Below are positions 142 to 32,752 of a stretch of DNA of 35,320 nucleotides, in pieces. Source of the DNA: a virus. Taxonomy: Duplodnaviria > Heunggongvirae > Uroviricota > Caudoviricetes. The notes under the pieces are model-generated. The model saw nothing but the letters and a program-made list of their open reading frames with translations. It made no database searches and was not told where the DNA came from. Positions within the stretch are counted from its first letter, which is position 1, and each line of letters opens with the position of its first letter. The translations under genes were made by a program, and so were the position numbers. The stretch lies in IMG/VR virus record IMGVR_UViG_2869970738_000004; one strand, written 5' to 3'.

Positions 142-492
142 AGCGCTTGCTCCTTTTTCGGGGAGGCGCTAACCTATCACTTGCTTAGGGTAGACGGTTA
201 GGGCCTCGGTTAAACAAAAATGTTTTCCGGGGCCTTTCCACATCTGGCCTTCAGGTATTCCCTCCGACCATCAGCCGAAAGGCACCCGCGCGTAATCTAT
301 CGCTTTTTTGTTACTCCGGCAATTCTGCTCGTTAATTCTGAGGTAAGGGCAAACTCATCTGATTGTTTCCTCTGTGTGAAGTTGGCAGTTCATGCCACGG
401 GTAGACTGGCCCCCTGAATCTCCAGACAACCAGTATCACTTAAATAAGTGATAGTCTTAATACTAGTTTTTAGACTAGTCATTGGAGTACAG

Positions 493-858
493 ATGATTGA
501 TGTCTTAGGGCCGGAGAAACGCAGACGGCGTACCACACAGGAAAAGATCGCAATTGTTCAGCAGAGCTTTGAACCGGGGATGACGGTCTCCCTCGTTGCC
601 CGGCAACATGGTGTAGCAGCCAGCCAGTTATTTCTCTGGCGTAAGCAATACCAGGAAGGAAGTCTTACTGCTGTGGCCGCCGGAGAACAGGTTGTTCCTG
701 CCTCTGAACTTGCTGCCGCCATGAAGCAGATTAAAGAACTCCAGCGCCTGCTCGGCAAGAAAACGATGGAAAATGAACTCCTCAAAGAAGCCGTTGAATA
801 TGGACGGGCAAAAAAGTGGATAGCGCACGCGCCCTTATTGCCCGGGGATGGGGAGTAA
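493..858 (+). CDS. insC: IS2 transposase OrfA (InsC)
   Basis: Track ORF 448-858; recognised InsC sequence begins [26 protein letters not shown] at ATG 493. Confidence 0.9.
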
Positions 859-1721
859 GCTTAGTCAGCCGTTGTCTCCGGGTGTCGCGTGCGCAGTTGC
901 ACGTCATTCTCAGACGAACCGATGACTGGATGGATGGCCGCCGCAGTCGTCACACTGATGATACGGATGTGCTTCTCCGTATACACCATGTTATCGGAGA
1001 GCTGCCCACGTATGGTTATCGTCGGGTATGGGCGCTGCTTCGCAGACAGGCAGAACTTGATGGTATGCCTGCGATCAATGCCAAACGTGTTTACCGGATC
1101 ATGCGCCAGAATGCGCTGTTGCTTGAGCGAAAACCTGCTGTACCGCCATCGAAACGGGCACATACAGGCAGAGTGGCCGTGAAAGAAAGCAATCAGCGAT
1201 GGTGCTCTGACGGGTTCGAGTTCTGCTGTGATAACGGAGAGAGACTGCGTGTCACGTTCGCGCTGGACTGCTGTGATCGTGAGGCACTGCACTGGGCGGT
1301 GACTACCGGCGGCTTCAACAGTGAAACAGTACAGGACGTCATGCTGGGAGCGGTGGAACGCCGCTTCGGCAACGATCTTCCGTCGTCTCCAGTGGAGTGG
1401 CTGACGGATAATGGTTCATGCTACCGGGCTAATGAAACACGCCAGTTCGCCCGGATGTTGGGACTTGAACCGAAGAACACGGCGGTGCGGAGTCCGGAGA
1501 GTAACGGAATAGCAGAGAGCTTCGTGAAAACGATAAAGCGTGACTACATCAGTATCATGCCCAAACCAGACGGGTTAACGGCAGCAAAGAACCTTGCAGA
1601 GGCGTTCGAGCATTATAACGAATGGCATCCGCATAGTGCGCTGGGTTATCGCTCGCCACGGGAATATCTGCGGCAGCGGGCTTGTAATGGGTTAAGTGAT
1701 AACAGATGTCTGGAAATATAG
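816..1721 (+). CDS. insD: IS2 transposase OrfB (InsD); normally expressed as InsCD by -1 frameshifting
   Basis: 301-aa ORF with integrase-core transposase sequence (…[37 protein letters not shown]…); overlaps insC in -1 frame. Confidence 0.9.
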
Positions 1722-1732
1722 GGGCAAATCCA

Positions 1733-2063: not shown

Positions 2064-5000
2064 TTATTCTGATGTCACTCTTTGCGAGTGAGCTATTTTT
2101 AAATCAGCGTTTCCTTCAAATACTACATTCAACTCATAGTTAAGAGTTAGCTTGAATTTATCTGAGTCACTTTTGATATTCTCTGAAGTGACATTTACTA
2201 ACTTATTATTATCATATTCTCTAATAATTAATTTAGTGAAGTAGTTATCCTTTACCACAAGAGAAAATGGTTGATTAACAAATGGTAAGAAGTAAACCTT
2301 ACGGGTACCGGATTCAGTAGTTATGTTCATAGAGCCATCATCATTTTTTCTCATTAGTTCTCTGAGGTTGGGATTATCGAAAAGCATACGATTATATTGC
2401 TGAAAGATCTCTTTACTCATCACAAGAACCAGTTTGCCAGCCAAGTCAGCAGATGATTTTATGTGATCAATCAACATATTGAAATCTTCTATTACGGTAT
2501 GTTGCGAACAGCCAGTGCTAAATAAATTTGAAAGTATTATTCTCTGGATGTCCTTGAGAATTAAGTCTGCTTGAATATCACCTTCATTGATATAAGGGAT
2601 GGATTCTATTCCTTCGGCATACGGTTCTTTATCTATCTTAATAGATATCTTATGTTTTGTGAAACAATCGCTAGCCTGCTTAAAATCAATAGATTTGAAA
2701 AGTGAAAGAGGGAGCGTTTTCTTGATGCGTTTACGAAGATGTTCTGATGTTTTACGTGCAGTGCTATCTAGTCGATGTACATCTATGGCAGCATCCTGAA
2801 GTCTCATATCAAGATCTTTCTTTAGCATGTTAATATGCTCTTGAAGCAACTTTCTTAAGTTTTCTTTTTTTGTTTGGAGATCGTCCAATGTTAAAGTCAG
2901 CTTGATTTTAGTATATTCGATGGAGTTACAAATTTTTGATAATACTCCAATGAGTCGTTGCTTCTCACGATATGTTATATAGTTGTTTTCTATTGCTTCT
3001 TTTATTTCTTTTGATACGCTATCGTTCTTGTTAGGAAAAATTAATAATAGCTGAACCCATGATTGTTCCATATCAATAAATCCACAGTCAAAAACATTAC
3101 TGTAAACTCTGCCCATCACCATGTCTGTTTTATCATAGTCACGTAAACGCCTTGCTAAACTATTCATCCACCCATTGTGTTCCATATTTTCAGACCATGT
3201 CCACAGGCAGATTCTAATTAATATCTTGATTAGTTGGCTTGCATTATCAATTTCTTCAGTGGGAGTTTCATATCCACCGGTTTGGTCAATAAGTTTACCC
3301 TCTAAAATAAGTTTAATGTAATGTGTCATTAGTTTGTCAGAAGTATTGATTCTTGATGTCAGATAAAGACATGTGCATATACGCATGTCAGTCAACGCAT
3401 TTATGATGGCAATATTGAACCACTCTCTGTCTGAATTGAAGTTTAGTTTTTTGGATATGAAAAAACCCGGGTTAAAAAGCTGGCCTTTGTAACTGTATTT
3501 TTCTACCGAATGGCTGTCAATATTCATTGAGTGCTGCCATCGGTTAATAAGATCGACGGCTGTATCAATAGTAGAAGGATCGCGAGTCTGTGTTGCATCA
3601 ATAATCATCGATGGAAGTTCTTGTAGTTGCGTTTTGCAAAATAATTCAAATAAATCTGAATTCTCTGTATTGCAGAAACGAAAGTTTATGCTTTCTTGAT
3701 ATTGCTCCCAAACAGTGGTATAGGTTCTTAATATACGATTATAACGTGAACGAAGCGAGGCATTTAAGAGTGATTGGTTGTTTCGGAACCATTCTGTTAA
3801 TATTGACCATTGTGAACGAGTAATTCCCATATAGATACAAAGTTCATTGCTGATAAGATGTTTTCTATTATTGATAATACGCACTCCGCTCCAAAGACAT
3901 AATTCAAAAAATCTTTCAGAAAGATTAATTTTATCCATGGAATTATTTGATATTTTATAAACTTCATCTGAAAACTCATATTGAAAACTCCGTTCAAATA
4001 ATTCTGTAGTGATCAGTAAGAAGTTATTGTTGGTATTATCATCTTGAAAAAAATACAAATCGCAGAGATTATTAAAGTTATTAATTAATGCAGAGATAGC
4101 ATTGTCAAAACTAATGAGATCAGAATCCCGCAGATACATATACGTATCTGCTGTTATAGCCTGCATTGTAAGACTTACGGAAAAATCTCCTCCTTTAATC
4201 GGAGCCCTATAAAAACATTGCTTAAGTATTTTTATTAATAAGCTGTCTGGTTTGATATTTTTAACGCTAAAAAGTATCTTACCCGTGGATTCTGTTTCTT
4301 TTGTACGATTATCACCAATGACAAATGACGCAAAATGATTCTTCTTTTTTAGTTGGTAATTAATAAGATTAAGAGTAAGTTGAAAAGGACGGTGATATAA
4401 ACTTAACTCATCTTCCTTAGAATAACTGCTAGCCACAGATATGTATTCTCCTTTGTAATCGGCTTGCTTGATTTCTAAATTTGAATAGTTATGTTTTTGA
4501 TAGATAGGGTATAACCTAAGCTTGGCTGAGATTTTGTTACAAATATGGGGCATTACTATTTCGAAGGCAATGTATCGCTTTATAATTATTTGCCGTTTTA
4601 CATCATCAAGAATTTCAAGACTCACGATAAAGAACCAAATAGAAAGAACTATGTTTATCAAAAGCCATAATATGCTGATTAGACAAGCTATACCATAAAG
4701 ATAACTTCCAAAGACAGTTTTAATTAGTACACTGAGAAGTATAAATCCTGATAAGAAAAGCCCGCTGAGTCCAGCAAGCATGAATCCTGAGTAACGCTGA
4801 TAAGCAGTTTGGGCTATTTTTCTATCTGCCTTTTTTTGGAATAAGATACTTACTAAACCTATAACAAGGGGGTATACAATACCAATAATTGTCAATTGGC
4901 CACTTAAAATGGTTGTTTGCCATTCGGTTAATGAATGCCTAAACGGGAAATAATGTAAAAGATTATTTTTTATAAATAATTCGTTTAAATATCCAACATA

Positions 5001-5183
5001 AAGTAGTACAAATGAAAAAGCTGATATGCAAAGTACTGATTTAACCGGTGAGGATGTTAATCTTATGATGTTTTTTTCAATAAAATTCCATTTTAAATTC
5101 GAATAAAATGGATTTTTAACCATTTTATTACGAACATAGTTCTTTGCTAAAATCTCTGTTGCACTTAAAAATTGTCCAATCAT
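2064..5183 (-). CDS. Hypothetical 1039-aa membrane-anchored protein, AT-rich accessory gene between D and ogr; candidate defence/abortive-infection factor
   Basis: Single uninterrupted ORF; nucleotide composition clearly more AT-rich than flanking phage genes; four hydrophobic helices at about residues 49-190 followed by about 850 aa of Asn/Lys/Ile-rich soluble sequence; no canonical Walker A (GxxxxGK[ST]) seen. Confidence 0.8.
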   Translation of the reverse strand: MIGQFLSATEILAKNYVRNKMVKNPFYSNLKWNFIEKNIIRLTSSPVKSVLCISAFSFVLLYVGYLNELFIKNNLLHYFPFRHSLTEWQTTILSGQLTIIGIVYPLVIGLVSILFQKKADRKIAQTAYQRYSGFMLAGLSGLFLSGFILLSVLIKTVFGSYLYGIACLISILWLLINIVLSIWFFIVSLEILDDVKRQIIIKRYIAFEIVMPHICNKISAKLRLYPIYQKHNYSNLEIKQADYKGEYISVASSYSKEDELSLYHRPFQLTLNLINYQLKKKNHFASFVIGDNRTKETESTGKILFSVKNIKPDSLLIKILKQCFYRAPIKGGDFSVSLTMQAITADTYMYLRDSDLISFDNAISALINNFNNLCDLYFFQDDNTNNNFLLITTELFERSFQYEFSDEVYKISNNSMDKINLSERFFELCLWSGVRIINNRKHLISNELCIYMGITRSQWSILTEWFRNNQSLLNASLRSRYNRILRTYTTVWEQYQESINFRFCNTENSDLFELFCKTQLQELPSMIIDATQTRDPSTIDTAVDLINRWQHSMNIDSHSVEKYSYKGQLFNPGFFISKKLNFNSDREWFNIAIINALTDMRICTCLYLTSRINTSDKLMTHYIKLILEGKLIDQTGGYETPTEEIDNASQLIKILIRICLWTWSENMEHNGWMNSLARRLRDYDKTDMVMGRVYSNVFDCGFIDMEQSWVQLLLIFPNKNDSVSKEIKEAIENNYITYREKQRLIGVLSKICNSIEYTKIKLTLTLDDLQTKKENLRKLLQEHINMLKKDLDMRLQDAAIDVHRLDSTARKTSEHLRKRIKKTLPLSLFKSIDFKQASDCFTKHKISIKIDKEPYAEGIESIPYINEGDIQADLILKDIQRIILSNLFSTGCSQHTVIEDFNMLIDHIKSSADLAGKLVLVMSKEIFQQYNRMLFDNPNLRELMRKNDDGSMNITTESGTRKVYFLPFVNQPFSLVVKDNYFTKLIIREYDNNKLVNVTSENIKSDSDKFKLTLNYELNVVFEGNADLKIAHSQRVTSE

Positions 5184-7883: not shown

Positions 7884-8359
7884 TGGCTGTGCCAAAACAT
7901 CTTCGCTTTTTTACGCTGTTTGTGGATGGTGAAAACGAAGTGGGTAATGTGACGTCCGTCACTCTGCCTAAGCTGACGCGCAAAACCGACAGCTACCGGG
8001 GTGGTGGCATGATGGGTGCGGTAAGTATTGATCTCGGTCTGGACGACTCCGCGCTTGATGCGAGCTTTGTCATGGGGGCGCAGTTCGTGAGCTGTTCCTT
8101 AAGTATGGCGGCACGATTGACGGCACGCTGCTGCGTTTTGCGGGTGAATACTACACCGATGCAGAAAGCGACCTGTATGAAGTCGAAATGCGCGGACGTG
8201 TGACGGAAATTGATATGGGGGAAGCCAAACAGGGCGAAGCCACATCACACACTTACGCCATTAAAACACCTACTACAAGCTGAGTGTTAACGATCGCCCG
8301 TTGTGGGAGATTGACCTGCTGAACTTCATTTACCGGAAGGACGGGGTAATGACTCCAAC

Positions 8360-8737
8360 TTATTGATAGTGTTTTATGTTCAGATAATGCCCGATGACTT
8401 TGTCATGCAGCTCCACCGATTTTGAGAACGACAGCGACTTCCGTCCCAGCCGTGCCAGGTGCTGCCTCAGATTCAGGTTATGCCGCTCAATTCGCTGCGT
8501 ATATCGCTTGCTGATTACGTGCAGCTTTCCCTTCAGGCGGGATTCATACAGTGGCCAGCCATCCGTCATCCATATCACCACGTCAAAGGGTGACAGCAAG
8601 CTCATAAGACGCCCCAGCGTCGCCATAGTGCGTTCACCGAATACGTGCGCAACAACCGTCTTCCGGAGCCTGTCATACGCGTAAAACAGCCAGCGCTGGC
8701 GCGATTTAGCCCCGACGTATCCCCACTGTTCGTCCAT
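8360..8737 (-). CDS. insB: IS1 InsB reading frame (expressed as InsAB' by frameshifting)
   Basis: 125-aa [51 protein letters not shown]…. Confidence 0.85.
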
Positions 8738-8781
8738 TTCCGCGCAGACGATGACGTCACTGCCCGGCTGTATGCGCGAGG

Positions 8782-9057
8782 TTACCGACTGCGGCCTGAG
8801 TTTTTTAAGTGACGTAAAATCGTGTTGAGGCTAACGCCCATAATGCGTGCAGTTGCCCGGCATCCAACGCCATTCATGGCCATATCAATAATTTTCTGGT
8901 GCGTACCGGGTTGAGAAGCGGTGTAAGTGAACTGCAGTTGCCATGTTTTACGGCAGTGAGAGCAGAGATAGCGCTGATGTCCGGCAGTGCTTTTGCCGTT
9001 ACGCACCACCCCGTCAGTAGCTGAACAGGAGGGACAGCTGATAGAAACAGAAGCCAC
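8782..9057 (-). CDS. insA: IS1 InsA
   Basis: 91-aa [46 protein letters not shown]…. Confidence 0.9.
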
Positions 9058-9225
9058 TGGAGCACCTCAAAAACACCATCATACACTAAATCAGTAAGTT
9101 GGCAGCATCACCGAAGGACGGCAAGGACATTGTGCCCGATCGCATCCGTTCCGCGCTTGGGCTTGGCTGATAAGTAATATGCTGGCGGCGCAGTGCGTCG
9201 CCTCTGACTGAAAAGGAGACAACAG

Positions 9226-12564: not shown

Positions 12565-13059
12565 ATGGCCATGATGATGATCTACGGCATGTTTGTTTTT
12601 GAGCTGCGCACGCTGCCGCATCAGCAGTTACAGCAAAACAAAAGCTGGCGGCATGTGAAAAATGAACGCGTTAACCGTTCAGCAAGCTGGCAGTATATCG
12701 GTGCAGGTGATGATCGCATCGTTCTTTCTGGTGTGCTTTATCCTGAAATTACAGGTGGCGAAGTGTCGCTGTCGCTGCTGACCACGCAGGCGTATACAGG
12801 ACGACCCTGGCCTTTGATTGATGGCGTCGGGCAGATTTACGGCATGTATGTCCTGACTGAAACGAATACGACCCGCTCCGAGTTTGATCGCTACGGTAAG
12901 GCGAAAAAGATAGAATTTTCACTGACTCTTGAACGCTGTGATGAGGATTTGCGGGAGCGCCTGCAATCCTCATCGTTCAGTGATATGCTGTCCGGCTTCA
13001 AAGATAAGGTGACATCATCTCTTAACAGCGCGGCCAGTTCAGTTAAAGGGCTGTTCTGA
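12565..13059 (+). CDS. U: Tail protein (P2 gpU-like)
   Basis: 164-aa ORF immediately after T with RBS GAGGAG; gpU-like sequence (…YPEITGGE…PLIDG.G.IYGMYV…). Confidence 0.85.
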   Translation: MAMMMIYGMFVFELRTLPHQQLQQNKSWRHVKNERVNRSASWQYIGAGDDRIVLSGVLYPEITGGEVSLSLLTTQAYTGRPWPLIDGVGQIYGMYVLTETNTTRSEFDRYGKAKKIEFSLTLERCDEDLRERLQSSSFSDMLSGFKDKVTSSLNSAASSVKGLF

Positions 13060-13068
13060 TTTAACACA

Positions 13069-13098
13069 AAAACCGCTAATGGTCAGATTAGCGGTTTT
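13069..13098. terminator. Perfect 12-bp-stem hairpin between convergent U and invertase genes; likely bidirectional terminator
   Basis: AAAACCGCTAAT-GGTCAG-ATTAGCGGTTTT; T-run follows on the + strand, A-run precedes. Confidence 0.6.
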
Positions 13099-13732
13099 CA
13101 TTTTCCTGAGTCTGCCCGGTTGTTTCTTCAGTCTGTATATCGCCTACAGGGTGATAACGATAAATCGTCGATGTGCCAATGCCGTAAATTATTGCCAGTT
13201 GTTTTCTGTCGTGCCCGTTTTTGATTAGCCTTGCTATTTGCTCATGCTGTTCTTTTGTCAGCTTCGGTCGACGTCCGCCTGTGCGCCCCCTTGCGCGCGC
13301 TGCCGCCAGCCCGGCCAGTGTACGTTCAACAATTAATTCACGTTCCATTTCAGCCAGGGCACCCATCACGTGGAAGAAAAAACGCCCCATTGGAGAAGAT
13401 GTGTCTATGCTGTCGGTCAGACTGCGAAAATTAATCCCTCGCTCCCGTAGTTCCCCGACGAGAGAAATCAGATGTTTCATGCTTCGCCCGAGGCGATCCA
13501 GTTTCCAGACAACCAGCGTGTCACCTTTTTGAAGGCGCTTTAAAGCGCGTTTTAATCCCGGTCGGTCTGTCTTTGTCCCGCTTAATTTATCTTCAAATAT
13601 TTGTTCACATCCTGCACAAACAAGAGCGTTTCGTTGCAGGTCTGTATTGTTGATACCCTTACATAGCCAATCAGCACACTGAATCTCCCGTCCAAAAGCG
13701 CAAATCATGCCATGCAGGCCAGAAACGGCCAT
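13088..13732 (-). pseudogene. Gin/Pin/Cin/Hin-family serine DNA invertase, N-terminal frameshift separating the catalytic-serine motif from the body
   Basis: Body matches invertases (…NTDLQRNALVCAGCEQIFEDKLSGT.TDRPGLKRAL…HTH); the motif LIGYVRVST is encoded in a different frame from NTDLQ, consistent with a 10-bp deletion between short ATA repeats. Confidence 0.8.
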
Positions 13733-13756
13733 TATTTAAAACCTCGGTTTACAGGA
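13731..13756. other. gix/cix-like invertase crossover site (distal)
   Basis: TTATTTAAAACCTCGGTTTACAGGAA abutting the invertase start; shares the core ACCTCGGTTTAC with an inverted copy at 17965-17990. Confidence 0.65.
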
Positions 13757-13781
13757 AACGGTAAACAGGGCTGGTAACGCC

Positions 13782-14618
13782 GTGCAAAAAAATGGCGATA
13801 CCTTGTCCGGTGGGCTTACTTTTGAAAATGACTCAATCCTTGCCTGGATTCGAAATACTGACTGGGCGAAGATTGGATTTAAAAATGATGCCGATGGTGA
13901 CACTGATTCATACATGTGGTTTGAAACAGGCGACAACGGCAATGAATATTTCAAATGGAGAAGCCGCCAGAGCACCACAACAAAAGACCTGATGACGCTG
14001 AAATGGGATGCACTAAATATTCTTGTTAATGCTGTCATTAATGGCAGTCTTGGAGTTGGTTCGACGAATGCGTTAGGTGGTAGCTCTATTGTTCTTGGTG
14101 ATAATGACACCGGATTTAAACAGAATGGAGACGGTATTCTGGATGTTTATGCTAATAGTCAGCGTGTATTCCGCTTTCAGAATGGAGTGGCTATTGCTTT
14201 TAAAAATATTCAGGCCGGGGATGGTAAAAAATTCACGCTATCCAGCTCCAACAACTTCACAAAGAATGCAACGTTTAATTTATGGGGTGCTTCAACCCGT
14301 CCAGTAGTTGCAGAGTTAGGCGATGAGGCAGGATGGCATTTCTATAGCCAGCGAAATACAGATAACTCGGTAATATTTTCTGTTAACGGTCAGATACAGC
14401 CCAGCAACTGGGGGAATTTTGATTCACGCTATGTAAAAGATGTTCGCCTGGGTACGCGTGTTGTTCAATTGATGGCGCGTGGTGGTCGTTATGAAAAAGC
14501 CGGACACGCAATTACCGGATTAAGAATCATTGGTGAAGTAGATGGCGATGATGAAGCCATCTTCAGACCAATACAAAAATACATCAATGGCACATGGTAT
14601 AACGTCGCACAGGTGTAA
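13782..14618 (+). CDS. Alternative tail-fibre C-terminal (receptor-binding) cassette in the silent orientation; coding continuity starts at the crossover site near 13757
   Basis: ORF ends …[11 protein letters not shown], paralleling the reconstructed end of H (…INGTWYNAGSI); frame is continuous back to the gix core. Confidence 0.7.
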
Positions 14619-15178: not shown

Positions 15179-15712
15179 TCATTCTGGTTGTTCGGGAAAC
15201 GTTACTGGCAGGCTGGAGGTGTCTGTAGATTCGACTTTCTGCGCATAGAGCATCCACTCGGTTAATTTTTGTTTATTCTCGTCGGAAATGATGCCCAGCC
15301 GTAGCTGTGAGTCCCATAGCTGGGTTTTATCCCTGACAAGTTGCAACAGGCTTTGCTTTTCATTTTCCGCTTGTTGCCTCTGCTCTTCCTCGGTATAAGT
15401 TCGCTTTATCACTACGCCATCTTTGAACAACCATTTCCCCGAAATATCAGCCCGGCGATTTGCTGTAATATCAGGTAATTCAACGACGCTTGCGCCTTCC
15501 GGATTAATTGCTGAAACATCCTTTTCAATACAAATAATAACGCCGTTATGGTCATAGACCATTTTCAAAGTGTCTGGCTGGAAATTCTTTTGCTCCTCAT
15601 ACCAGTTTTTTCCATCATCTGAATAAAGCCATTTGATGTTAAATTGCTTTGTTAGCTGGTATTGCTCTTTTGTTTTAGGGTTGCCAGCAGTAATGTTTTT
15701 TAAGTGCATCAT
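15179..15712 (-). CDS. Tail-fibre assembly protein (P2 gpG / Mu U-like), expressed orientation
   Basis: 177-aa [23 protein letters not shown]…; start 2 nt after the reconstructed H stop. Confidence 0.85.
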   Translation of the reverse strand: MMHLKNITAGNPKTKEQYQLTKQFNIKWLYSDDGKNWYEEQKNFQPDTLKMVYDHNGVIICIEKDVSAINPEGASVVELPDITANRRADISGKWLFKDGVVIKRTYTEEEQRQQAENEKQSLLQLVRDKTQLWDSQLRLGIISDENKQKLTEWMLYAQKVESTDTSSLPVTFPEQPE

Positions 15713-15840
15713 CGTTAAATACTCCCCGCGTTATACCACGTCCCATTAATGCAATACTGAATTGGCCTTGCCTGTGTTGTATCAATTAATTCATCACGGT
15801 TTCCGTTAACTGAACCCGTAACGACGGTAATGACTCCAAC

Positions 15841-16218
15841 TTATTGATAGTGTTTTATGTTCAGATAATGCCCGATGACTTTGTCATGCAGCTCCACCGA
15901 TTTTGAGAACGACAGCGACTTCCGTCCCAGCCGTGCCAGGTGCTGCCTCAGATTCAGGTTATGCCGCTCAATTCGCTGCGTATATCGCTTGCTGATTACG
16001 TGCAGCTTTCCCTTCAGGCGGGATTCATACAGTGGCCAGCCATCCGTCATCCATATCACCACGTCAAAGGGTGACAGCAAGCTCATAAGACGCCCCAGCG
16101 TCGCCATAGTGCGTTCACCGAATACGTGCGCCACAACCGTCTTCCGGAGCCTGTCATACGCGTAAAACAGCCAGCGCTGGCGCGATTTAGCCCCGACGTA
16201 TCCCCACTGTTCGTCCAT
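15841..16218 (-). CDS. insB: IS1 InsB reading frame
   Basis: Protein identical to copy 1. Confidence 0.85.
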
Positions 16219-16262
16219 TTCCGCGCAGACGATGACGTCACTGCCCGGCTGTATGCGCGAGG

Positions 16263-16538
16263 TTACCGACTGCGGCCTGAGTTTTTTAAGTGACGTAAAA
16301 TCGTGTTGAGGCTAACGCCCATAATGCGTGCAGTTGCCCGGCATCCAACGCCATTCATGGCCATATCAATAATTTTCTGGTGCGTACCGGGTTGAGAAGC
16401 GGTGTAAGTGAACTGCAGTTGCCATGTTTTACGGCAGTGAGAGCAGAGATAGCGCTGATGTCCGGCAGTGCTTTTGCCGTTACGCACCACCCCGTCAGTA
16501 GCTGAACAGGAGGGACAGCTGATAGAAACAGAAGCCAC
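16263..16538 (-). CDS. insA: IS1 InsA
   Basis: Protein identical to copy 1. Confidence 0.9.
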
Positions 16539-16793
16539 TGGAGCACCTCAAAAACACCATCATACACTAAATCAGTAAGTTGGCAGCATCACCCGTAACG
16601 ACATAACCTGACCTGTCAGACCAGCCGGGACCATTCCATGTCTGAACAGATGACAGACCGCCAAGGCGAATACCTGTAATAAACCTTGAGTTACATTCTG
16701 CCCGCGTATATGCACCAACATCTCCCGCTGAAGGTTTTCGTGTCGTGGTATAGAAATCTGACCAACCTAATTCAACCCGGTAATGACTCCAAC

Positions 16794-17171
16794 TTATTGA
16801 TAGTGTTTTATGTTCAGATAATGCCCGATGACTTTGTCATGCAGCTCCACCGATTTTGAGAACGACAGCGACTTCCGTCCCAGCCGTGCCAGGTGCTGCC
16901 TCAGATTCAGGTTATGCCGCTCAATTCGCTGCGTATATCGCTTGCTGATTACGTGCAGCTTTCCCTTCAGGCGGGATTCATACAGTGGCCAGCCATCCGT
17001 CATCCATATCACCACGTCAAAGGGTGACAGCAAGCTCATAAGACGCCCCTGCGTCGCCATAGTGCGTTCACCGAATACGTGCGCAACAACCGTCTTCCGG
17101 AGCCTGTCATACGCGTAAAACAGCCAGCGCTGGCGCGATTTAGCCCCGACGTATCCCCACTGTTCGTCCAT
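16794..17171 (-). CDS. insB: IS1 InsB reading frame
   Basis: 125-aa ORF. Confidence 0.85.
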
Positions 17172-17215
17172 TTCCGCGCAGACGATGACGTCACTGCCCG
17201 GCTGTATGCGCGAGG

Positions 17216-17491
17216 TTACCGACTGCGGCCTGAGTTTTTTAAGTGACGTAAAATCGTGTTGAGGCTAACGCCCATAATGCGTGCAGTTGCCCGGCATCCA
17301 ACGCCATTCATGGCCATATCAATAATTTTCTGGTGCGTACCGGGTTGAGAAGCGGTGTAAGTGAACTGCAGTTGCCATGTTTTACGGCAGTGAGAGCAGA
17401 GATAGCGCTGATGTCCGGCAGTGCTTTTGCCGTTACGCACCACCCCGTCAGTAGCTGAACAGGAGGGACAGCTGATAGAAACAGAAGCCAC
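17216..17491 (-). CDS. insA: IS1 InsA
   Basis: 91-aa ORF. Confidence 0.9.
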
Positions 17492-17964
17492 TGGAGCACC
17501 TCAAAAACACCATCATACACTAAATCAGTAAGTTGGCAGCATCACCATTCAACCCCATAACCATCATGAGCCGACCTGTAGGAAATGCCACCATTTTTAT
17601 AATTCACACGGAATTGTACGGCAGGACAGCTACCAGCATTTATATTAAAGTGAAGAATTAATGCAGATGCACCACCAATCAGGGCGTTATATGCACTACT
17701 ATCCCAATTCCATCCAATGGATGTATCACCATTAACAGTATTACCTGTTTGTCGGAGTGCAAATGCATTGACATTTTTGGCACTAATTGAAATATCGCTA
17801 GAACCATCAAAACCAACTCCAGCAATTTTTCGTGCTGTTTTCAGCTTTGTTGCAGTAGCGGCATTGCCGGACAGTTCCCCAGAAAGGCCACCGCTGAATG
17901 TTTGTCGATTGGTCCAGGTATTCGCTGTACTGAGTAACGGTATTTTCTCCCCGCTTGTGCCGAG

Positions 17965-17990
17965 TTCTCGTAAACCGAGGTATTCGATAA
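17965..17990. other. gix/cix-like crossover site (proximal), inside H at the constant/variable boundary (about codon 426)
   Basis: Reverse complement TTATCGAATACCTCGGTTTACGAGAA shares 12-bp core ACCTCGGTTTAC and TTAT flank with the site at 13731-13756, in inverted orientation. Confidence 0.6.
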
Positions 17991-18360: not shown

Positions 18361-18726
18361 TTTCTTGTTCGTTTCATCCATTACCGCCTTAACCGCTTTC
18401 GATGTCGCGGCCAGTGTTTCAGACGTGCTGTTGGTGGCACTACTGAGCTGGACTATCCCTTTTTGTGCCGTCGTGGCGTCCTGAGCGGTATATTTTGCGT
18501 TAGCAAGGTCATACGCGGCCTTTACTGCTTTCGGCGTTGCAGCCTGCGTTTCAGACGTGCTGTTGGTGGCGCTACTGAGCTGGACAAGGCCTTTTCGCGT
18601 CGTGCTGGCATCCTGCGCAGTATATTTACCGTTAGCAAGATCATACGCGGCCTTTACTGCTTTCGGCGTTGCAGCCTGCGTTTCAGACACGCTGTTAGTG
18701 GCGCTACTGAGTTGAACAAAGCCTTT
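18361..18726 (-). repeat. About 2.8 tandem copies of a 132-bp (44-aa) in-frame coding repeat within H
   Basis: Protein repeats KG[FLI]VQLSSATNS.SETQAATPKAVKAAYDLAN.KYTAQDA; nucleotide period visible as GTTAGCAAG[GA]TCATACGCGGCC recurring 132 bp apart. Confidence 0.8.
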
Positions 18727-22700: not shown

Positions 22701-23244
22701 GGTTGTTATCCTCGTTGTTCAGTCGTTGCAGCCTGCGCTGTTCCAGTAATTCAATGGCCCGTTTATCCGCGTTACAGGTTTCCAGTGCATCCAGAAGGCG
22801 GTCGCCCCATATACCGAGATTTCCCCATGTGGGAGTGTCAGGGAAGGGGGAGGCGTTACCGGTATGGTCAGCGTCTGCGGTATAAGCCGGACTGACGGCG
22901 CTGGCAGTGGCGCGTTCTGCGTGCCTGCGCAGCCTGTCAGTAAAACGAGCGTCAGGCAAAGCGTGGGCGCATTCATCTTTTGCAATATCGTTGCGTAGCT
23001 GTTCACGTCTTACCTCTCCGTCCTGATTGCGTTGCTGATTTTCCACGCGGAGTTGCGCCAGCACCTGCTGCATATCCTGTACCCCGGCGCTGATGATATT
23101 CAGGGTGTCGGCGGTACTTTTCAGGGTGCTGGCCTGCGCTTCGTTTCTGGCGTTCTCCCGGCCCAGCGACCACGACAGACGCATGGATGTTCCCCATCCG
23201 GCAGTCAGAAGGAAAGCGACGCCAAGCGTGGGCCAGAGCTTCAT
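22687..23244 (-). CDS. lysB: Rz-like inner-membrane spanin (LysB-like); likely start at the internal Met (MKLWPTLGVAFLLTAGWG…)
   Basis: N-terminal TM helix then coiled-coil-rich periplasmic domain; ATGA overlap with the endolysin stop. Confidence 0.7.
   Translation of the reverse strand: MKLWPTLGVAFLLTAGWGTSMRLSWSLGRENARNEAQASTLKSTADTLNIISAGVQDMQQVLAQLRVENQQRNQDGEVRREQLRNDIAKDECAHALPDARFTDRLRRHAERATASAVSPAYTADADHTGNASPFPDTPTWGNLGIWGDRLLDALETCNADKRAIELLEQRRLQRLNNEDNNHAEN
22719..22976 (-). CDS. lysC: Rz1-like outer-membrane lipoprotein spanin (LysC-like) embedded in lysB in another frame
   Basis: MNAPTLCLTLVLLTGCAG lipobox signal followed by Pro-rich sequence. Confidence 0.6.
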   Translation of the reverse strand: MNAPTLCLTLVLLTGCAGTQNAPLPAPSVRLIPQTLTIPVTPPPSLTLPHGEISVYGATAFWMHWKPVTRINGPLNYWNSAGCND

Positions 23245-24158
23245 GCCGGATAGGCTCCGTGTGGTAACTGAAAATGCGGTCCGTCTTTCAGGGTCTTCCA
23301 GTCGCCGCCCCATTCCACCGGAATATTCAGTTCCCGGCTGGCCTGTCTGAATGCTGCTGCGATTTTTTCGTACAGCGGCCATTCCCATGACACCTGGCTG
23401 CCGATATAAGCCACAACATCCACGGCATGCCCCGTAAGGTGGCGGCTGTTCATGGTCTGGCTCTTACCCGTGGCCACCAGTTGCTTCTGGCGGTAACGGC
23501 TGCGCAACCCTTCGGTGATACCAAAATCCACTTCCGAGATTTCCAGTGCCCGTCGGGTCACTTTCACCAGATCAGGATTTACACCCTGCAAATTCTTTTC
23601 GCTCCGGCTGCTGAATTTAAATGTGTTGCTCATTCGTCCTTCTCCTTCACTCTGGATACTGTTAAACGTCATCACCGCCTGACGTTGCTGTGCCGTGAAT
23701 TTCAGGCGCTCAGTGCCCAGGCTTGCCGGGGTGTCGGTCATCGCCAGCCCGACCAGATAGGCGCGCCCGTTAACGGAGAACTGCGGGTGCAGTTCGATAC
23801 TGGAATAGATTTTCTTGCCGTCCGCAACAAGCTGCTTCATGCGCTCGGTCGGTTCGATTTCTGCATACAGCGCAGTACGTCCGGCCAGCGGACCTTCCGT
23901 AATGTCTTCCGTACTCAGTGCGGTGACATCGCCCATTGCGGAAAATTCGCTTGACGGGCATGGCGAGAGATAGTGCTCAACGTTCACGCGGGCAGCGTAA
24001 ACATCCGGGTTGAAGTTCTCGGCGGCTTCACGCAGATGCACCGGACTGATTTCACGGCCATCAACAGTTGATCCGGAGACAGCCACGCGAAACTTTTTGC
24101 GGGATGTCTTTTTTTCATTAGCCATAGTTTTTGCCCCTCTGACTGGTTCTTCAGTCAT
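23241..24158 (-). CDS. In-frame fusion of a gpO (capsid scaffold) N-terminal fragment with an M15-peptidase endolysin; the endolysin may initiate separately at the internal Met near 23633
   Basis: Residues 12-160 are gpO-like (…FRVAVSGSTVDGREIS…YLVGLAMTDTPASLGTE…); residues 176-305 are M15 endolysin-like (MSNTFKFSSRSEKNLQGVNPDL…HLTGHAVDV…); an AGGAGAAGG RBS is translated within the linker. Confidence 0.7.
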   Translation of the reverse strand: MTEEPVRGAKTMANEKKTSRKKFRVAVSGSTVDGREISPVHLREAAENFNPDVYAARVNVEHYLSPCPSSEFSAMGDVTALSTEDITEGPLAGRTALYAEIEPTERMKQLVADGKKIYSSIELHPQFSVNGRAYLVGLAMTDTPASLGTERLKFTAQQRQAVMTFNSIQSEGEGRMSNTFKFSSRSEKNLQGVNPDLVKVTRRALEISEVDFGITEGLRSRYRQKQLVATGKSQTMNSRHLTGHAVDVVAYIGSQVSWEWPLYEKIAAAFRQASRELNIPVEWGGDWKTLKDGPHFQLPHGAYPA

Positions 24159-25927
24159 GATGGCAAAGCGTAACAGGCTGATACAAAGGGCTTTTGTTGT
24201 AAGAAAACGGCCAGAACAGAGGGTTAAGGAGAACAGTTTCGCGCGCGGGTAATCTTCCTGTAATTACTCAGGGGAGCAATGATTCAGGACGCTTTTGTGC
24301 GCCAGCGTGCGCGGCAACTTTACTGGCAGGGTTATCCGCCCGCAGAAATATCACGTCTGATGGGAATAAACCCGAACACGATTTATGCGTGGAAAAAACG
24401 TGACCAGTGGGATGAAACGCCACCCGGGCAGCGTGTCACGCAGTCCATCGATGCGCGCCTCATCCAGCTTACTGAAAAACAGAATAAAACAGGCGGTGAC
24501 TTTAAGGAAATAGACCTGCTGACCCGGCAGCTTAAAAAGCTGCATGATGGCCAGCCGGATGTGATGGCCGCAGGAAAGAAAGGCCGGGCGAAAAAACTCA
24601 AAAATCATTTCACGCCGGAACAGATTGCCGCACTGCGGGAAAAAATCATCAGCAGGCTGGAGTGGCATCAGCGGGGCTGGTTTGACTCCCTGACCCTTTG
24701 CAGGGAAGCCGGGATACGTAACAGGATGATCCTGAAATCCCGACAGATTGGGGCGACCTGGTATTTTGCACAGGAAGCACTGCTGATGGCGCTGCGTGAC
24801 GATGTGGCGCAACCTTACCAGCGTAACCAGATTTTTTTGTCTGCGTCGCGTCGTCAGGCGTTCCAGTTTAAAAGCATTATTCAGAAGGCGCGGCTGAAGT
24901 TGATGTGGAGCTGAAAGGGGGCGATAAAATCATCCTCTCCAACGGCGCAGAGCTGCATTTTCTCGGCATTTCTGCTGCGTCGGCACAGTCCTATACGGGC
25001 AATTTTTATTTTGATGAATTTTTCTGGGTCAGTCGCTTTGCTGAACTGCGCAAGGTGGCTGGCGCTATGGCAACCCTCAGCGGACTGCGGCGCACCTACT
25101 TCTCCACGCCATCCACCGAAACGCACGAGGCATACGCCTACTGGAACGGCGACCGCTGGAACGAGAAAAAGGCCTCGCATAAACGCCAGCGTTTTTCTGT
25201 GGACTGGAAAACGCTGCATAACGGGCTTATCTGCCCTGACCGGACGTGGCGGCAAATTGTCACGCTGGAAGATGTGGTTAATCACGGCTGGAAACACACC
25301 GATATCGACGAAATTCGTGATGAAAACACCGAAGACGAGTTCCTCAATCTCTATATGTGCGAGTTTGTCCGCGAAGGGGAATCGGCATTTAACCTGAATA
25401 TCCTGATTGGCTGCGGCGTTGACGGATACGACGACTGGAAAGACTGGAAACCTTTTGCTCCCCGCCCGATGGGGAATCGTCCGGTATGGATTGGGTATGA
25501 CGCAAACGGCAGCAGTGGCAACGGCGACAGCGGCGCTGTGTCCGTGGTGGTTCCTCCGTCTGTTCCTGGTGGCCGTTTTCGAACGGTGGAGACGCGACGC
25601 GTTCAGGGGCTGGAGTTTGAAGAACAGGCCAGAGTCATTGAAGAGTTCACGTGTCGCTACAACGTGGAACACATCGGCATTGATGTGACGGGCGGGAACG
25701 GGGAGGCTGTTTATCAGATAGTGAAACGGTTTTTCCCTGCCGCTATTCCGTACACCTTCACGCTGTCATCAAAACGGTCGCTGGTACTGAAAATGCTGCA
25801 AATAATGCGTGCCGGGCGGTGGGAATACGATCGCGCCGAACGCGAGCTGGTCGCGGCCTTTAACGCCGTGCGGGTGATGCTGCCAACTTACTGATTTAGT
25901 GTATGATGGTGTTTTTGAGGTGCTCCA

Positions 25928-26203
25928 GTGGCTTCTGTTTCTATCAGCTGTCCCTCCTGTTCAGCTACTGACGGGGTGGTGCGTAACGGCAAAAGCACTG
26001 CCGGACATCAGCGCTATCTCTGCTCTCATTGCCGTAAAACATGGCAACTACAGTTCACTTACACCGCCTCTCAGCCCGGTACGCACCAGAAAATCATTGA
26101 TATGGCCATGAATGGCGTCGGATGTCGTGCCAGTGCACGCATTATGGGCGTTGGCCTCAACACGATTTTACGTCACTTAAAAAACTCAGGCCGCAGTCGG
26201 TAA
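25928..26203 (+). CDS. insA: IS1 InsA
   Basis: 91-aa ORF. Confidence 0.9.
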
Positions 26204-26247
26204 CCTCGCGCATACAGCCGGGCAGTGACGTCATCGTCTGCGCGGAA

Positions 26248-26625
26248 ATGGACGAACAGTGGGGATACGTCGGGGCTAAATCGCGCCAGCGCTGGCTGTT
26301 TTACGCGTATGACAGGCTCCGGAAGACGGTTGTTGCGCACGTATTCGGTGAACGCACTATGGCGACGCAGGGGCGTCTTATGAGCTTGCTGTCACCCTTT
26401 GACGTGGTGATATGGATGACGGATGGCTGGCCACTGTATGAATCCCGCCTGAAGGGAAAGCTGCACGTAATCAGCAAGCGATATACGCAGCGAATTGAGC
26501 GGCATAACCTGAATCTGAGGCAGCACCTGGCACGGCTGGGACGGAAGTCGCTGTCGTTCTCAAAATCGGTGGAGCTGCATGACAAAGTCATCGGGCATTA
26601 TCTGAACATAAAACACTATCAATAA
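26248..26625 (+). CDS. insB: IS1 InsB reading frame
   Basis: MDEQWGY… portion of track ORF 26122-26625. Confidence 0.85.
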
Positions 26626-26805
26626 GTTGGAGTCATTACCCGCCGTGCGTAAGGTGAAAACACCGGGCGGCTTTATCACTTACGAAACGGACCGAGCGAG
26701 GGGGATCAGCCACGGCGACCTTGCGTGGGTAACCATGCTTGCTGTCATTAACGAACCGATTGGCGGCGAAGGAGAAAACGAGCGTTTCACGGTTATGGAG
26801 TTCTG

Positions 26806-28353: not shown

Positions 28354-28944
28354 TCAGGTGTTATTTTTATCTGTCGTCAGTGGGCTAAACCATCCACAAT
28401 TTACATCGCATGACTGATGCGTTCTGTCCTCGTGTTTCTCCTGCCACAATGCTTTTCCGCCAGCCTTTATGATGGCTCTTTCAACATCCCGCTCGTATCG
28501 CAAGGGCTGAAATACGTCATTAATGAAATATTCGCTTATGTCCGGAAGCGATACTGCAAAATTATTTGTTTGTTGCGCCGTCCTGCTATGCAGCAAAGCG
28601 GCATGCTTTAATGCGTCCTGTGCTTTCTGGAATTTAAGTGCATAGTCAGTGGCGATTTTTTCCAGTTCAGCGATTCGGTTGTCTTTGGTTTCCAGCCAAT
28701 CAAGTAGCGCCAATACTTCAGGATCCCCGACATCCAACACTGTTACGCGTGATTTTTCATAATGTTCGTCAGCAAGAGTTCGGCCAATTTTGAAATCTCC
28801 ATCATCACCATAACCGGAGCAGGCATAAACAACCTGTGCTCCAGATATTCGCTGAATTGACATTTCCTCGCCGCAAATAGGGCATTTCGGTACTGGCACA
28901 GGTGAATAACGTTCACGTAATGCCTGATAGTTGATTTCGCTCAT
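28354..28944 (-). CDS. Hypothetical 196-aa protein with N-terminal zinc-ribbon (CPICGEE…C.G) and central coiled-coil; possibly ead/Ea22-like
   Basis: Single ORF with GGAG RBS; family assignment from recollection only. Confidence 0.55.
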   Translation of the reverse strand: MSEINYQALRERYSPVPVPKCPICGEEMSIQRISGAQVVYACSGYGDDGDFKIGRTLADEHYEKSRVTVLDVGDPEVLALLDWLETKDNRIAELEKIATDYALKFQKAQDALKHAALLHSRTAQQTNNFAVSLPDISEYFINDVFQPLRYERDVERAIIKAGGKALWQEKHEDRTHQSCDVNCGWFSPLTTDKNNT

Positions 28945-29929: not shown

Positions 29930-29940
29930 TGAAGTGGTCA

Positions 29941-31395
<1,455 letters not shown>

Positions 31396-31399
<4 letters not shown>

Positions 31400-31722
31400 T
31401 TTTTCCAGAGGCGGTCGAACTCCGCCTTCGCAAAATAAGCGGAAGCCTGGCGAAGGATATCGTTACTGCGGCGCAGTTCACGATTTTCACGTTCCAGCTC
31501 TTTCAGACGCTGACGTTCAGCGGTGGTGAGCCCGCCATCACCGCCTCCGGTATCCCGCTCATGCTGGCGTACCCAGACACGCAGAGTCTCCGGTGTACAG
31601 CCAATCTTTGGGGCAATGGAACAAATTGCCGCCCACTGTGAGTCATATTCGCCCTGACTTTCCAGAACCATACGAATCGCCCTCTGACGGACTTCGGGGG
31701 AAAAACGAGTATTTTTAGTCAT
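31396..31722 (-). CDS. IS629-like OrfA
   Basis: [61 protein letters not shown]…. Confidence 0.85.
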
Positions 31723-31993
31723 CCTGTTTACCTCTTTCTCAGGGAGTTTAGTCTCCAGGATTCCCGGGGCGGTTCAGCCTTTCAAGGTAGTTAGGGATAG
31801 CAACATGTTCATGACCACCACGTTTATACCGGTGAGTCGGCTGCTGACAGCTGACCAGCCCCAGCTCTTTCATGAGCCTGCCAGCAAGCCAGCGTCCCAT
31901 CTGGTAGCCTCTCCGGGTTGCCATTGTGGCGATGCTTCTTGCTCCGGCCGAACCATGGCTGATGCCATGTAGCTCAAGTACCTGACTGCGTAA

Positions 31994-32415
<422 letters not shown>

Positions 32416-32487
32416 TGGAGCACCTGTGTTGTTCTGAGGTGAGCATATCACCTCTGTTCAGGTGGCCAAATTCAGTGTGCCACTTCA

Positions 32488-32752
32488 AACCGAAGAACAC
32501 GGCGGTGCGGAGTCCGGAGAGTAACGGAATAGCAGAGAGCTTCGTGAAAACGATAAAGCGTGACTACATCAGTATCATGCCCAAACCAGACGGGTTAACG
32601 GCAGCAAAGAACCTTGCAGAGGCGTTCGAGCATTATAACGAATGGCATCCGCATAGTGCGCTGGGTTATCGCTCGCCACGGGAATATCTGCGGCAGCGGG
32701 CTTGTAATGGGTTAAGTGATAACAGATGTCTGGAAATATAGGGGCAAATCCA
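32488..32752 (+). mobile_element. IS2 right-end fragment (about 265 bp; 3' part of insD plus right end), abutting IS911
   Basis: Matches the complete IS2 from about 1468 to 1732; encodes …[19 protein letters not shown]…NRCLEI. Confidence 0.9.

Follow-up and report, generated by a model that had tools for sequence, protein, structure and literature searches.

The window, by which we mean the whole 35,320-nt stretch of DNA analysed here, carries on its minus strand a gene for a serine DNA invertase of the Gin/PinB type, together with an invertible tail-fibre cassette (Table 1). The host element is a Xuanwuvirus prophage (P88-like, P2-related Peduoviridae) located between ihfA and btuC; this identity and this site are given by E. 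coli GDSC2BY4G, whose copy is intact and annotated, and by phage matches (503458, 520873, P88 and P884B11). Compared block by block, its nucleotide identity to the intact E. coli prophage and to phages 503458, P88 and P884B11 is 96-99.6%, and its P2-type late genes are colinear with those of the relatives, broken by IS elements and deletions. In Xuanwuvirus phages the tail sheath/tube/tape-measure/gpU module converges on the baseplate/tail-fibre module, and the invertase gene and the cassette sit between these two converging modules.

Two 26-bp crossover sites in inverted orientation, with the same GA core and a fit to the dix consensus, flank the cassette beside the invertase gene. Both are identical to the sites of two intact E. 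coli relatives, and the proximal site of phage 503458 differs by one base. In phage Mu the same site pattern coincides with the annotated boundaries of the G segment. Judged from their sequences, the cis crossover sites of the window are intact. The Sv part of the tail-fibre gene within the cassette is interrupted by two IS1 copies, so that no complete Sv-side tail fibre can be obtained from either orientation. In the constant part of the same gene, a 132-bp tandem duplication (18386-18649, 83% identity) was considered as a further lesion and rejected, as the intact E. coli copy also has it and it represents a normal fibre repeat.

Table 1. Features of the invertase locus and of the surrounding prophage (window coordinates)
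Feature	Position	Strand	Basis or remarks
IS2-like insertion, 1,331 bp, probable IS2	402-1732		in ogr
IS1	8345-9109		in tail tube gene
Gin/PinB-type serine DNA invertase gene, read as a chimeric 214-aa ORF	13088..13732	-	ORF listing, Pfam, PDB chains, tblastn; starts MAVSGLHGMICAFGREIQCADWLCKGINNTDLQRNAL
Native-frame remnant	13582..13677	-	GTG start, VLIGYVRVST, 21 frameshifted codons, stop
Predicted Fis-dependent enhancer	13603..13654	-	homology to hin, geometry; inside gene 5' end
Putative distal Fis core	13617..13603	-	GTGCAGGATGTGAAC
Putative proximal Fis core	13654..13640	-	ATCAACAATACAGAC, right half replaced through the deletion
Deletion junction	13646..13649	-	alignments with relatives and hin; AAATGACCAG missing, placement ambiguous by AA
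Proximal 26-bp crossover site	13732..13757	-	TTCCTGTAAACC GA GGTTTTAAATAA; bixR/gixR-like
Invertible segment	13745..17977	.	~4.23 kb here versus ~2.68 kb in intact relatives
Alternative tail-fibre tip Sv'	13782..14618	+	
Tail-fibre assembly gene U'	to 15150	+	
Tail-fibre assembly gene U	15179..15712	-	Sv tip also in segment
IS1 copy in Sv part of tail-fibre gene	15826..16590	.	gap versus intact relative, direct repeat, InsA/DDE_Tnp_IS1 Pfam
Second IS1 in Sv part of tail-fibre gene	16779..17546	.	direct orientation to the first
Distal 26-bp crossover site	17965..17990	+	TTCTCGTAAACC GA GGTATTCGATAA; bixL-like, inside tail-fibre gene
GPO-M15 peptidase fusion ORF	23241..24158	-	junction near 23645-23657, left by 3.4-kb deletion
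IS1	25873-26640		in large terminase gene
Nested IS3-family transposase ORFs	29930-32752		replace replication region; parM truncated

A ten-nucleotide deletion in the invertase gene

We aligned the 5' region of the invertase gene with those of E. coli O145:H28 RM12581, Escherichia phage 503458 and phage Mu gin. A single difference sets the window apart from its intact relatives, namely a 10-nt deletion: where they read TCAAC AAATGACCAG AATACAG, the window reads TCAAC AATACAG. Outside this gap, all 231 aligned bases of the window (13560-13790), which cover the crossover site and the 5' end of the gene, are identical to RM12581. The missing bases represent 10 of the 12 nucleotides coding for N11-D12-Q13-N14 (Gin numbering), directly 3' of S9-T10. 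The earlier note on this DNA, made from the sequence alone, had proposed a 10-bp deletion between two ATA trinucleotides that removed the D-Q-N codons. The alignment, Mu gin included, bears out a deletion of that size splitting the gene at that place. The ATA repeat does not stand, as the intact sequence has no upstream ATA and the two ends of the deletion share, as a repeat, no more than the dinucleotide AA, within which the position of the junction is free. The loss of D-Q-N is likewise to be restated as that of 10 of the 12 nucleotides of N11-D12-Q13-N14.

The intact protein, whose N-terminus is VLIGYVRVSTNDQNTDLQRNAL, was used as a tblastn query against the window. Its residues 14-199 are found at 100% identity in frame -1 (13648..13091) and its residues 1-10 in frame -2 (13677..13648); the same search revealed no other serine recombinase in the window. 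The separation of LIGYVRVST and the NTDLQ body into two frames, noticed earlier from the letters, is thus confirmed by translation as well as by tblastn, and the assignment of the body to the Gin/Pin/Cin/Hin type is upheld by Pfam, by tblastn and by alignment with Gin structure chains.

The 10-nt gap is a specific lesion rather than a variation within the family, because all 743 full-length E. coli matches to the locus carry the ten nucleotides. The earlier note had allowed for an intact N-terminus in an unexpected family variant; every relative has the ten nucleotides.

Predicted products of the two frames

The longer of the two reading frames yields a 214-aa chimera. An out-of-frame ORF further upstream supplies residues 1-28, and residues 29-214 correspond to residues 14-199 of the intact invertase, with the Gin-type body beginning at NTDLQRNALVCAGCEQIFEDKL. 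Pfam finds the Resolvase domain (PF00239, E = 2.9e-43) from profile position 16 to 144, versus 2 to 144 in the intact orthologue, and HTH_7 (PF02796, E = 5.1e-13) at residues 153-195 of 214. The chimera is thus a Resolvase domain minus its first ~14 profile positions, plus HTH_7, and the chains of the Gin crystal structures 3uj3 and 4m6f align to it only from chain residue 13. In the native frame, which opens with the GTG at 13677, the translation reads VLIGYVRVSTIQTCNETLLFVQDVNKYLKIN up to a stop codon, i.e. a 31-residue peptide that carries Y5, R7 and the catalytic S9 (Gin numbering). The Y-x-R-V-S-T-x-x-Q motif of the Din family is therefore out of frame with the remainder of the domain.

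How the body came to be readable is explained by the relatives. Mu and the three intact relatives checked all have a 29-codon ORF, MAVSGLHGMICAFGREIQCADWLCKGINK, out of frame with the invertase. It begins with an ATG at the outer, invertase-proximal end of the proximal crossover site, the same ATG that opens the chimera. The TGA of this ORF falls within invertase codons 11-12, inside the ten bases deleted in the window. The deletion both removes this TGA and aligns the body with the upstream frame, which results in the 214-aa chimera. The comparison of upstream ORFs, the ORF listing and Pfam agree with the earlier description of a long ORF that starts at an upstream ATG and lacks the catalytic serine.

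In Gin, Ser9 forms the phosphoserine link. As predicted from its sequence, the 214-aa product is devoid of Ser9, Tyr5 and Arg7 of the first strand. Given what Ser9 is known to do in Gin, we infer that neither product can perform phosphoserine chemistry and that the element would be unable to invert its own segment. The window copy is best regarded as a pseudogene of the Din family and not as a functional member, since VLIGYVRVST lies in frame -2, residues 14-199 lie in frame -1 and the N-D-Q codons are deleted.

Two minor features of the gene borders deserve mention. The 29-codon ORF (window region 13646..13732, minus strand) is open in Mu gin and in the three intact Xuanwuvirus-type copies checked, despite amino-acid differences; it could be a coincidence or a conserved leader ORF. 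At the other end of the gene, a hairpin with a 12-bp stem (13069-13098) lies between the invertase gene, whose stop codon it overlaps, and the convergent gpU-like tail gene (12565..13059, plus strand). From its sequence and position, it looks like a shared bidirectional terminator. A consensus scan found no sigma-70-like promoter near the invertase gene.

Distribution of the junction

Four contigs, from seven samples, code for exactly this 214-aa product. The identical junction is present in CP026795.1 (GCA_002950275.1), in GCA_002968185.1 and in the Logan assemblies ERR200265 and SRR8186739, which derive from public sequencing runs; one of the four assemblies is a finished chromosome. Positions 3088-23732 of the window are 100% identical to S. 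boydii CP026795.1 over 20,645 bases, and GCF_002950275.1, which holds this chromosome, is given as an ATCC strain of Shigella boydii in PMC12679885.

With a 70-nt query across the junction, 744 E. coli genome records matched, 743 of them over the full length, and all 743 span 80 nt; the deletion junction was absent among the 5,426 complete E. coli genomes searched in this way. The exact 31-nt junction had zero matches in GTDB species representatives, IMG/VR and JGI metagenomes. The deletion is thus private to one S. boydii lineage, and the unique 31-nt junction provides a clean marker of this clade (lesion k-mer GTAAGGGTATCAACAATACAGACCTGCAACG). In the protein collection, the 214-aa sequence has neither a deposited accession nor a name, which would fit with depositors having annotated the gene as a pseudogene.

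The two S. boydii assemblies differ elsewhere. Relative to CP026795.1, GCA_002968185.1 has one tail-fibre IS1 instead of two, and its tape-measure gene is split into 540 + 381 aa. These differences may reflect recombination between IS1 copies together with a frameshift, or else noise in the assembly.

Comparison with known invertase systems

The closest counterparts are the invertases of Xuanwuvirus (phage 503458 gp15 and E. coli WP_000905061.1), which are the same gene, located between a gpU-like gene and the cassette. They match the window at 97.7-98.8% nucleotide identity; in the case of RM12581, essentially all the difference is due to the 10-nt gap. These copies are intact, 199 aa long, and begin with VLIGYVRVSTNDQNTDLQ, in contrast to the window copy without the ten nucleotides.

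Phage Mu provides the best-known parallel. The locus shares with the G segment its 26-bp sites with a GA core, the Sv-U / U'-Sv' layout and the GTG start, and with gin the same 29-codon upstream ORF and the same TGA end. Mu Gin is 85% identical to the intact orthologue and near-identical over the first 120 aa. However, its C-terminal DNA-binding region has diverged, the outer half-sites at our locus differ from gix, the host element here is P2-like, and the window copy is frameshifted.

In the site table of the Din family, the window crossover sites are closest to those of PinB (Table 3 in PMC3241671). The right half of the distal site, GGTATTCGATAA, is that of bixL, and the proximal site is one base off bixR. 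Shigella B-pinB (GenBank D00660; Tominaga et al. 1991, reference 34 of PMC3241671) is reported to resemble G-gin but to differ from it in the constant region beyond the segment, and this would fit the P2-like context found here. Orthology between the window gene and pinB is a possible lead from these sequences. PinB of Shigella is reported to be active, unlike the seemingly dead copy in the window.

Din-family invertase genes that are non-functional and reside in cryptic prophages presumably include pinF of S. flexneri and pinH of E. coli K-12. We take these to be different genes with different lesions, pinF being of the e14 type. Lastly, Salmonella Hin belongs to the same family, and its enhancer is likewise located inside the 5' end of the gene, with two Fis cores that align to those proposed below. 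Unlike the gene studied here, hin lies inside its own invertible segment and controls a promoter rather than tail-fibre tips.

Overlap of the deletion with the predicted Fis enhancer

Din invertases need a Fis-bound enhancer. A hin locus was retrieved by means of its hixL sequence. The hin enhancer is 65 bp long, with two Fis sites centred 47 bp apart and located ~100 bp from hixL; ATTTA and TAATG motifs are found between the two sites, and both the enhancer's helical phasing and its shape are described as critical (PMC3798978). In the hin sequence, a distance of exactly 47 bp separates GTCAACAATTGACCA (codons V9-Q14) from the strict-consensus GTGCAAATTGTGACC; the two bracket the ATTTA and TAATG motifs, and the first of them is ~107 bp from the centre of hixL. 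These two sequences most likely represent the Fis cores of hin. They align to ATCAACAAATGACCA and GTGCAGGATGTGAAC, respectively, in gin and in the intact relatives. A motif scan identified GTGCAGGATGTGAAC as the only match to the strict Fis consensus in the region; a scan with the loose G-N6-W-N6-C pattern gave too many hits to be used alone, and the proximal core was placed by the alignment with hin.

In the intact relatives, the predicted proximal core is ~97 bp from the centre of the crossover site, and the spacing between the two putative cores is 47 bp, versus 37 bp in the window. By homology to hin, the ten deleted bases would correspond to the right half of the proximal Fis core. The sequence created at the new junction, ATCAACAATACAGAC, keeps a consensus-like right half, and an enhancer that has lost about one helical turn may retain partial function.

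It had been suggested earlier that a host-encoded invertase such as e14 Pin might complement the defect in trans. Rescue by e14 Pin or any other invertase cannot be assumed, because the deletion falls in the predicted proximal Fis site, and inversion by another Din-family invertase in trans is probably impaired as well. In any case, inversion in trans would be inconsequential, because the cassette holds two IS1 copies.

Decay of the host prophage

An inventory of the lesions was made by comparing the prophage block by block with the intact E. coli copy. Six stretches occupied by IS elements are found within this single ~30-kb prophage, including four IS1 copies (tail tube, tail fibre for two of them, and large terminase). 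In addition, a 3.4-kb deletion extends from the endolysin/holin boundary into the scaffold gene. Besides part of the latter, the prophage has thereby lost its genes for the holin, tail X, head completion, the small terminase and the major capsid protein. The lesion in the invertase gene is thus one of at least eight in the prophage. Such IS-driven decay of prophages is a familiar pattern in Shigella.

Interpretation of the lesion

Taken together, these data very strongly favour a dead, lineage-specific pseudogene of a Gin/PinB-type invertase in a decaying Shigella boydii prophage. In intact Xuanwuvirus prophages, the enzyme inverts the ~2.7-kb cassette and thereby switches the C-terminal tip of the tail fibre along with its assembly chaperone. 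In the S. boydii lineage, the 10-nt deletion after codons S9-T10 shifts the frame, such that the N-terminal strand bearing the nucleophile (YVRVS) is now read as part of the 31-residue peptide. What remains of the catalytic domain, like the HTH, is readable only from the fortuitous upstream ATG, because the deletion also took the TGA that closes the 29-codon ORF. The most economical reading is that the lesion arose by neutral decay under the IS expansion of Shigella.

One alternative would be that the chimera is made and has a non-catalytic role, occupying the crossover sites as a dominant-negative lock or acting as a repressor at the site that overlaps its own start. The ORF is open, with a GAGG read from the sequence 9 nt upstream of its ATG, and it keeps the dimerisation helix, positions 16-144 of PF00239, a full HTH_7 and a body 100% identical to that of the functional orthologue. 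Nevertheless, the first beta-strand of the catalytic domain is lost, which probably destabilises the fold, and the surrounding prophage is wrecked, with nothing left to regulate; as for the identity of the body, a recent neutral lesion would fit it equally well. We consider such a role quite improbable. That the dead protein is expressed, dimerises and binds the sites, thereby locking other Din systems in a dominant-negative manner or regulating itself, stands a very slim chance; if true, the gene would be a domesticated remnant rather than junk.

Alternatively, the deletion might have been selected because it froze the tail-fibre cassette while the phage was still active. In keeping with this, the cassette has one orientation in all four assemblies with the deletion. 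However, the intact relatives examined show the same orientation, which makes this observation uninformative, and the deletion occurs in a single lineage that also has many destructive IS elements in essential phage genes. Selection of this kind is thus hardly probable. Of note, hits ending at query position 753 were considered as evidence of the opposite orientation of the cassette and rejected, as they reflect a different Sv' cassette instead.

The gap could also be a sequencing or assembly artefact hiding an intact gene, given that the junction is known here from assembled contigs and that GCA_002968185.1 has other frame breaks, such as its split tape-measure gene, that resemble assembly noise. 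Yet a clean loss of ten nucleotides in non-repetitive sequence is atypical of platform error. Sequencing error is very unlikely, because four independent assemblies share the junction: the contigs were built independently from seven samples, the finished chromosome among them. They make a sequencing correction that would restore the frame, the other outcome that the earlier note had allowed for, equally unlikely. Finally, programmed frameshifting that would rejoin the two frames into an active invertase has next to no likelihood: beyond the overlap of the frames nothing speaks for it, no slippery heptamer is evident by eye at 13600-13680, the enzyme is encoded in a single frame in every relative, and the rejoined product would still be devoid of N11-D12-Q13 of the conserved VSTxxQ active-site loop.

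The invertase gene is an ordinary pseudogene, with no new biology beyond the known decay of Shigella prophages. It nevertheless represents an annotation trap, as the ORF looks full-length and has strong Resolvase and HTH_7 matches in spite of having no nucleophile. A gene caller can report the chimera as a normal 'recombinase family protein', and only an alignment with relatives exposes the defect. The point that we add here, on the basis of homology to hin, is the probable overlap of the deletion with the enhancer. It suggests how a single small deletion can strike a recombinase together with an enhancer that lies within its coding sequence.

Other features of the prophage

A large ORF of 1039 aa (2064..5183, minus strand) lies between ogr and a gpD-like tail gene, with a GC content of 32.8% versus 50.7% for the window. 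It had no match in Pfam, PADLOC, NCBIfam or PDB sequences. By eye, its ~200 N-terminal residues resemble several transmembrane helices. The RefSeq label 'MFS transporter' attached to its E. coli orthologue was considered and set aside, as three profile libraries do not support it. It is a cargo gene in a variable spot of a P2-like phage, and an anti-phage or membrane-acting role would be our guess. A stretch without counterpart in the intact E. coli prophage codes for an Ead/Ea22-like protein (28354..28944, minus strand; PF13935, E = 2e-32) and is mosaic accessory content.
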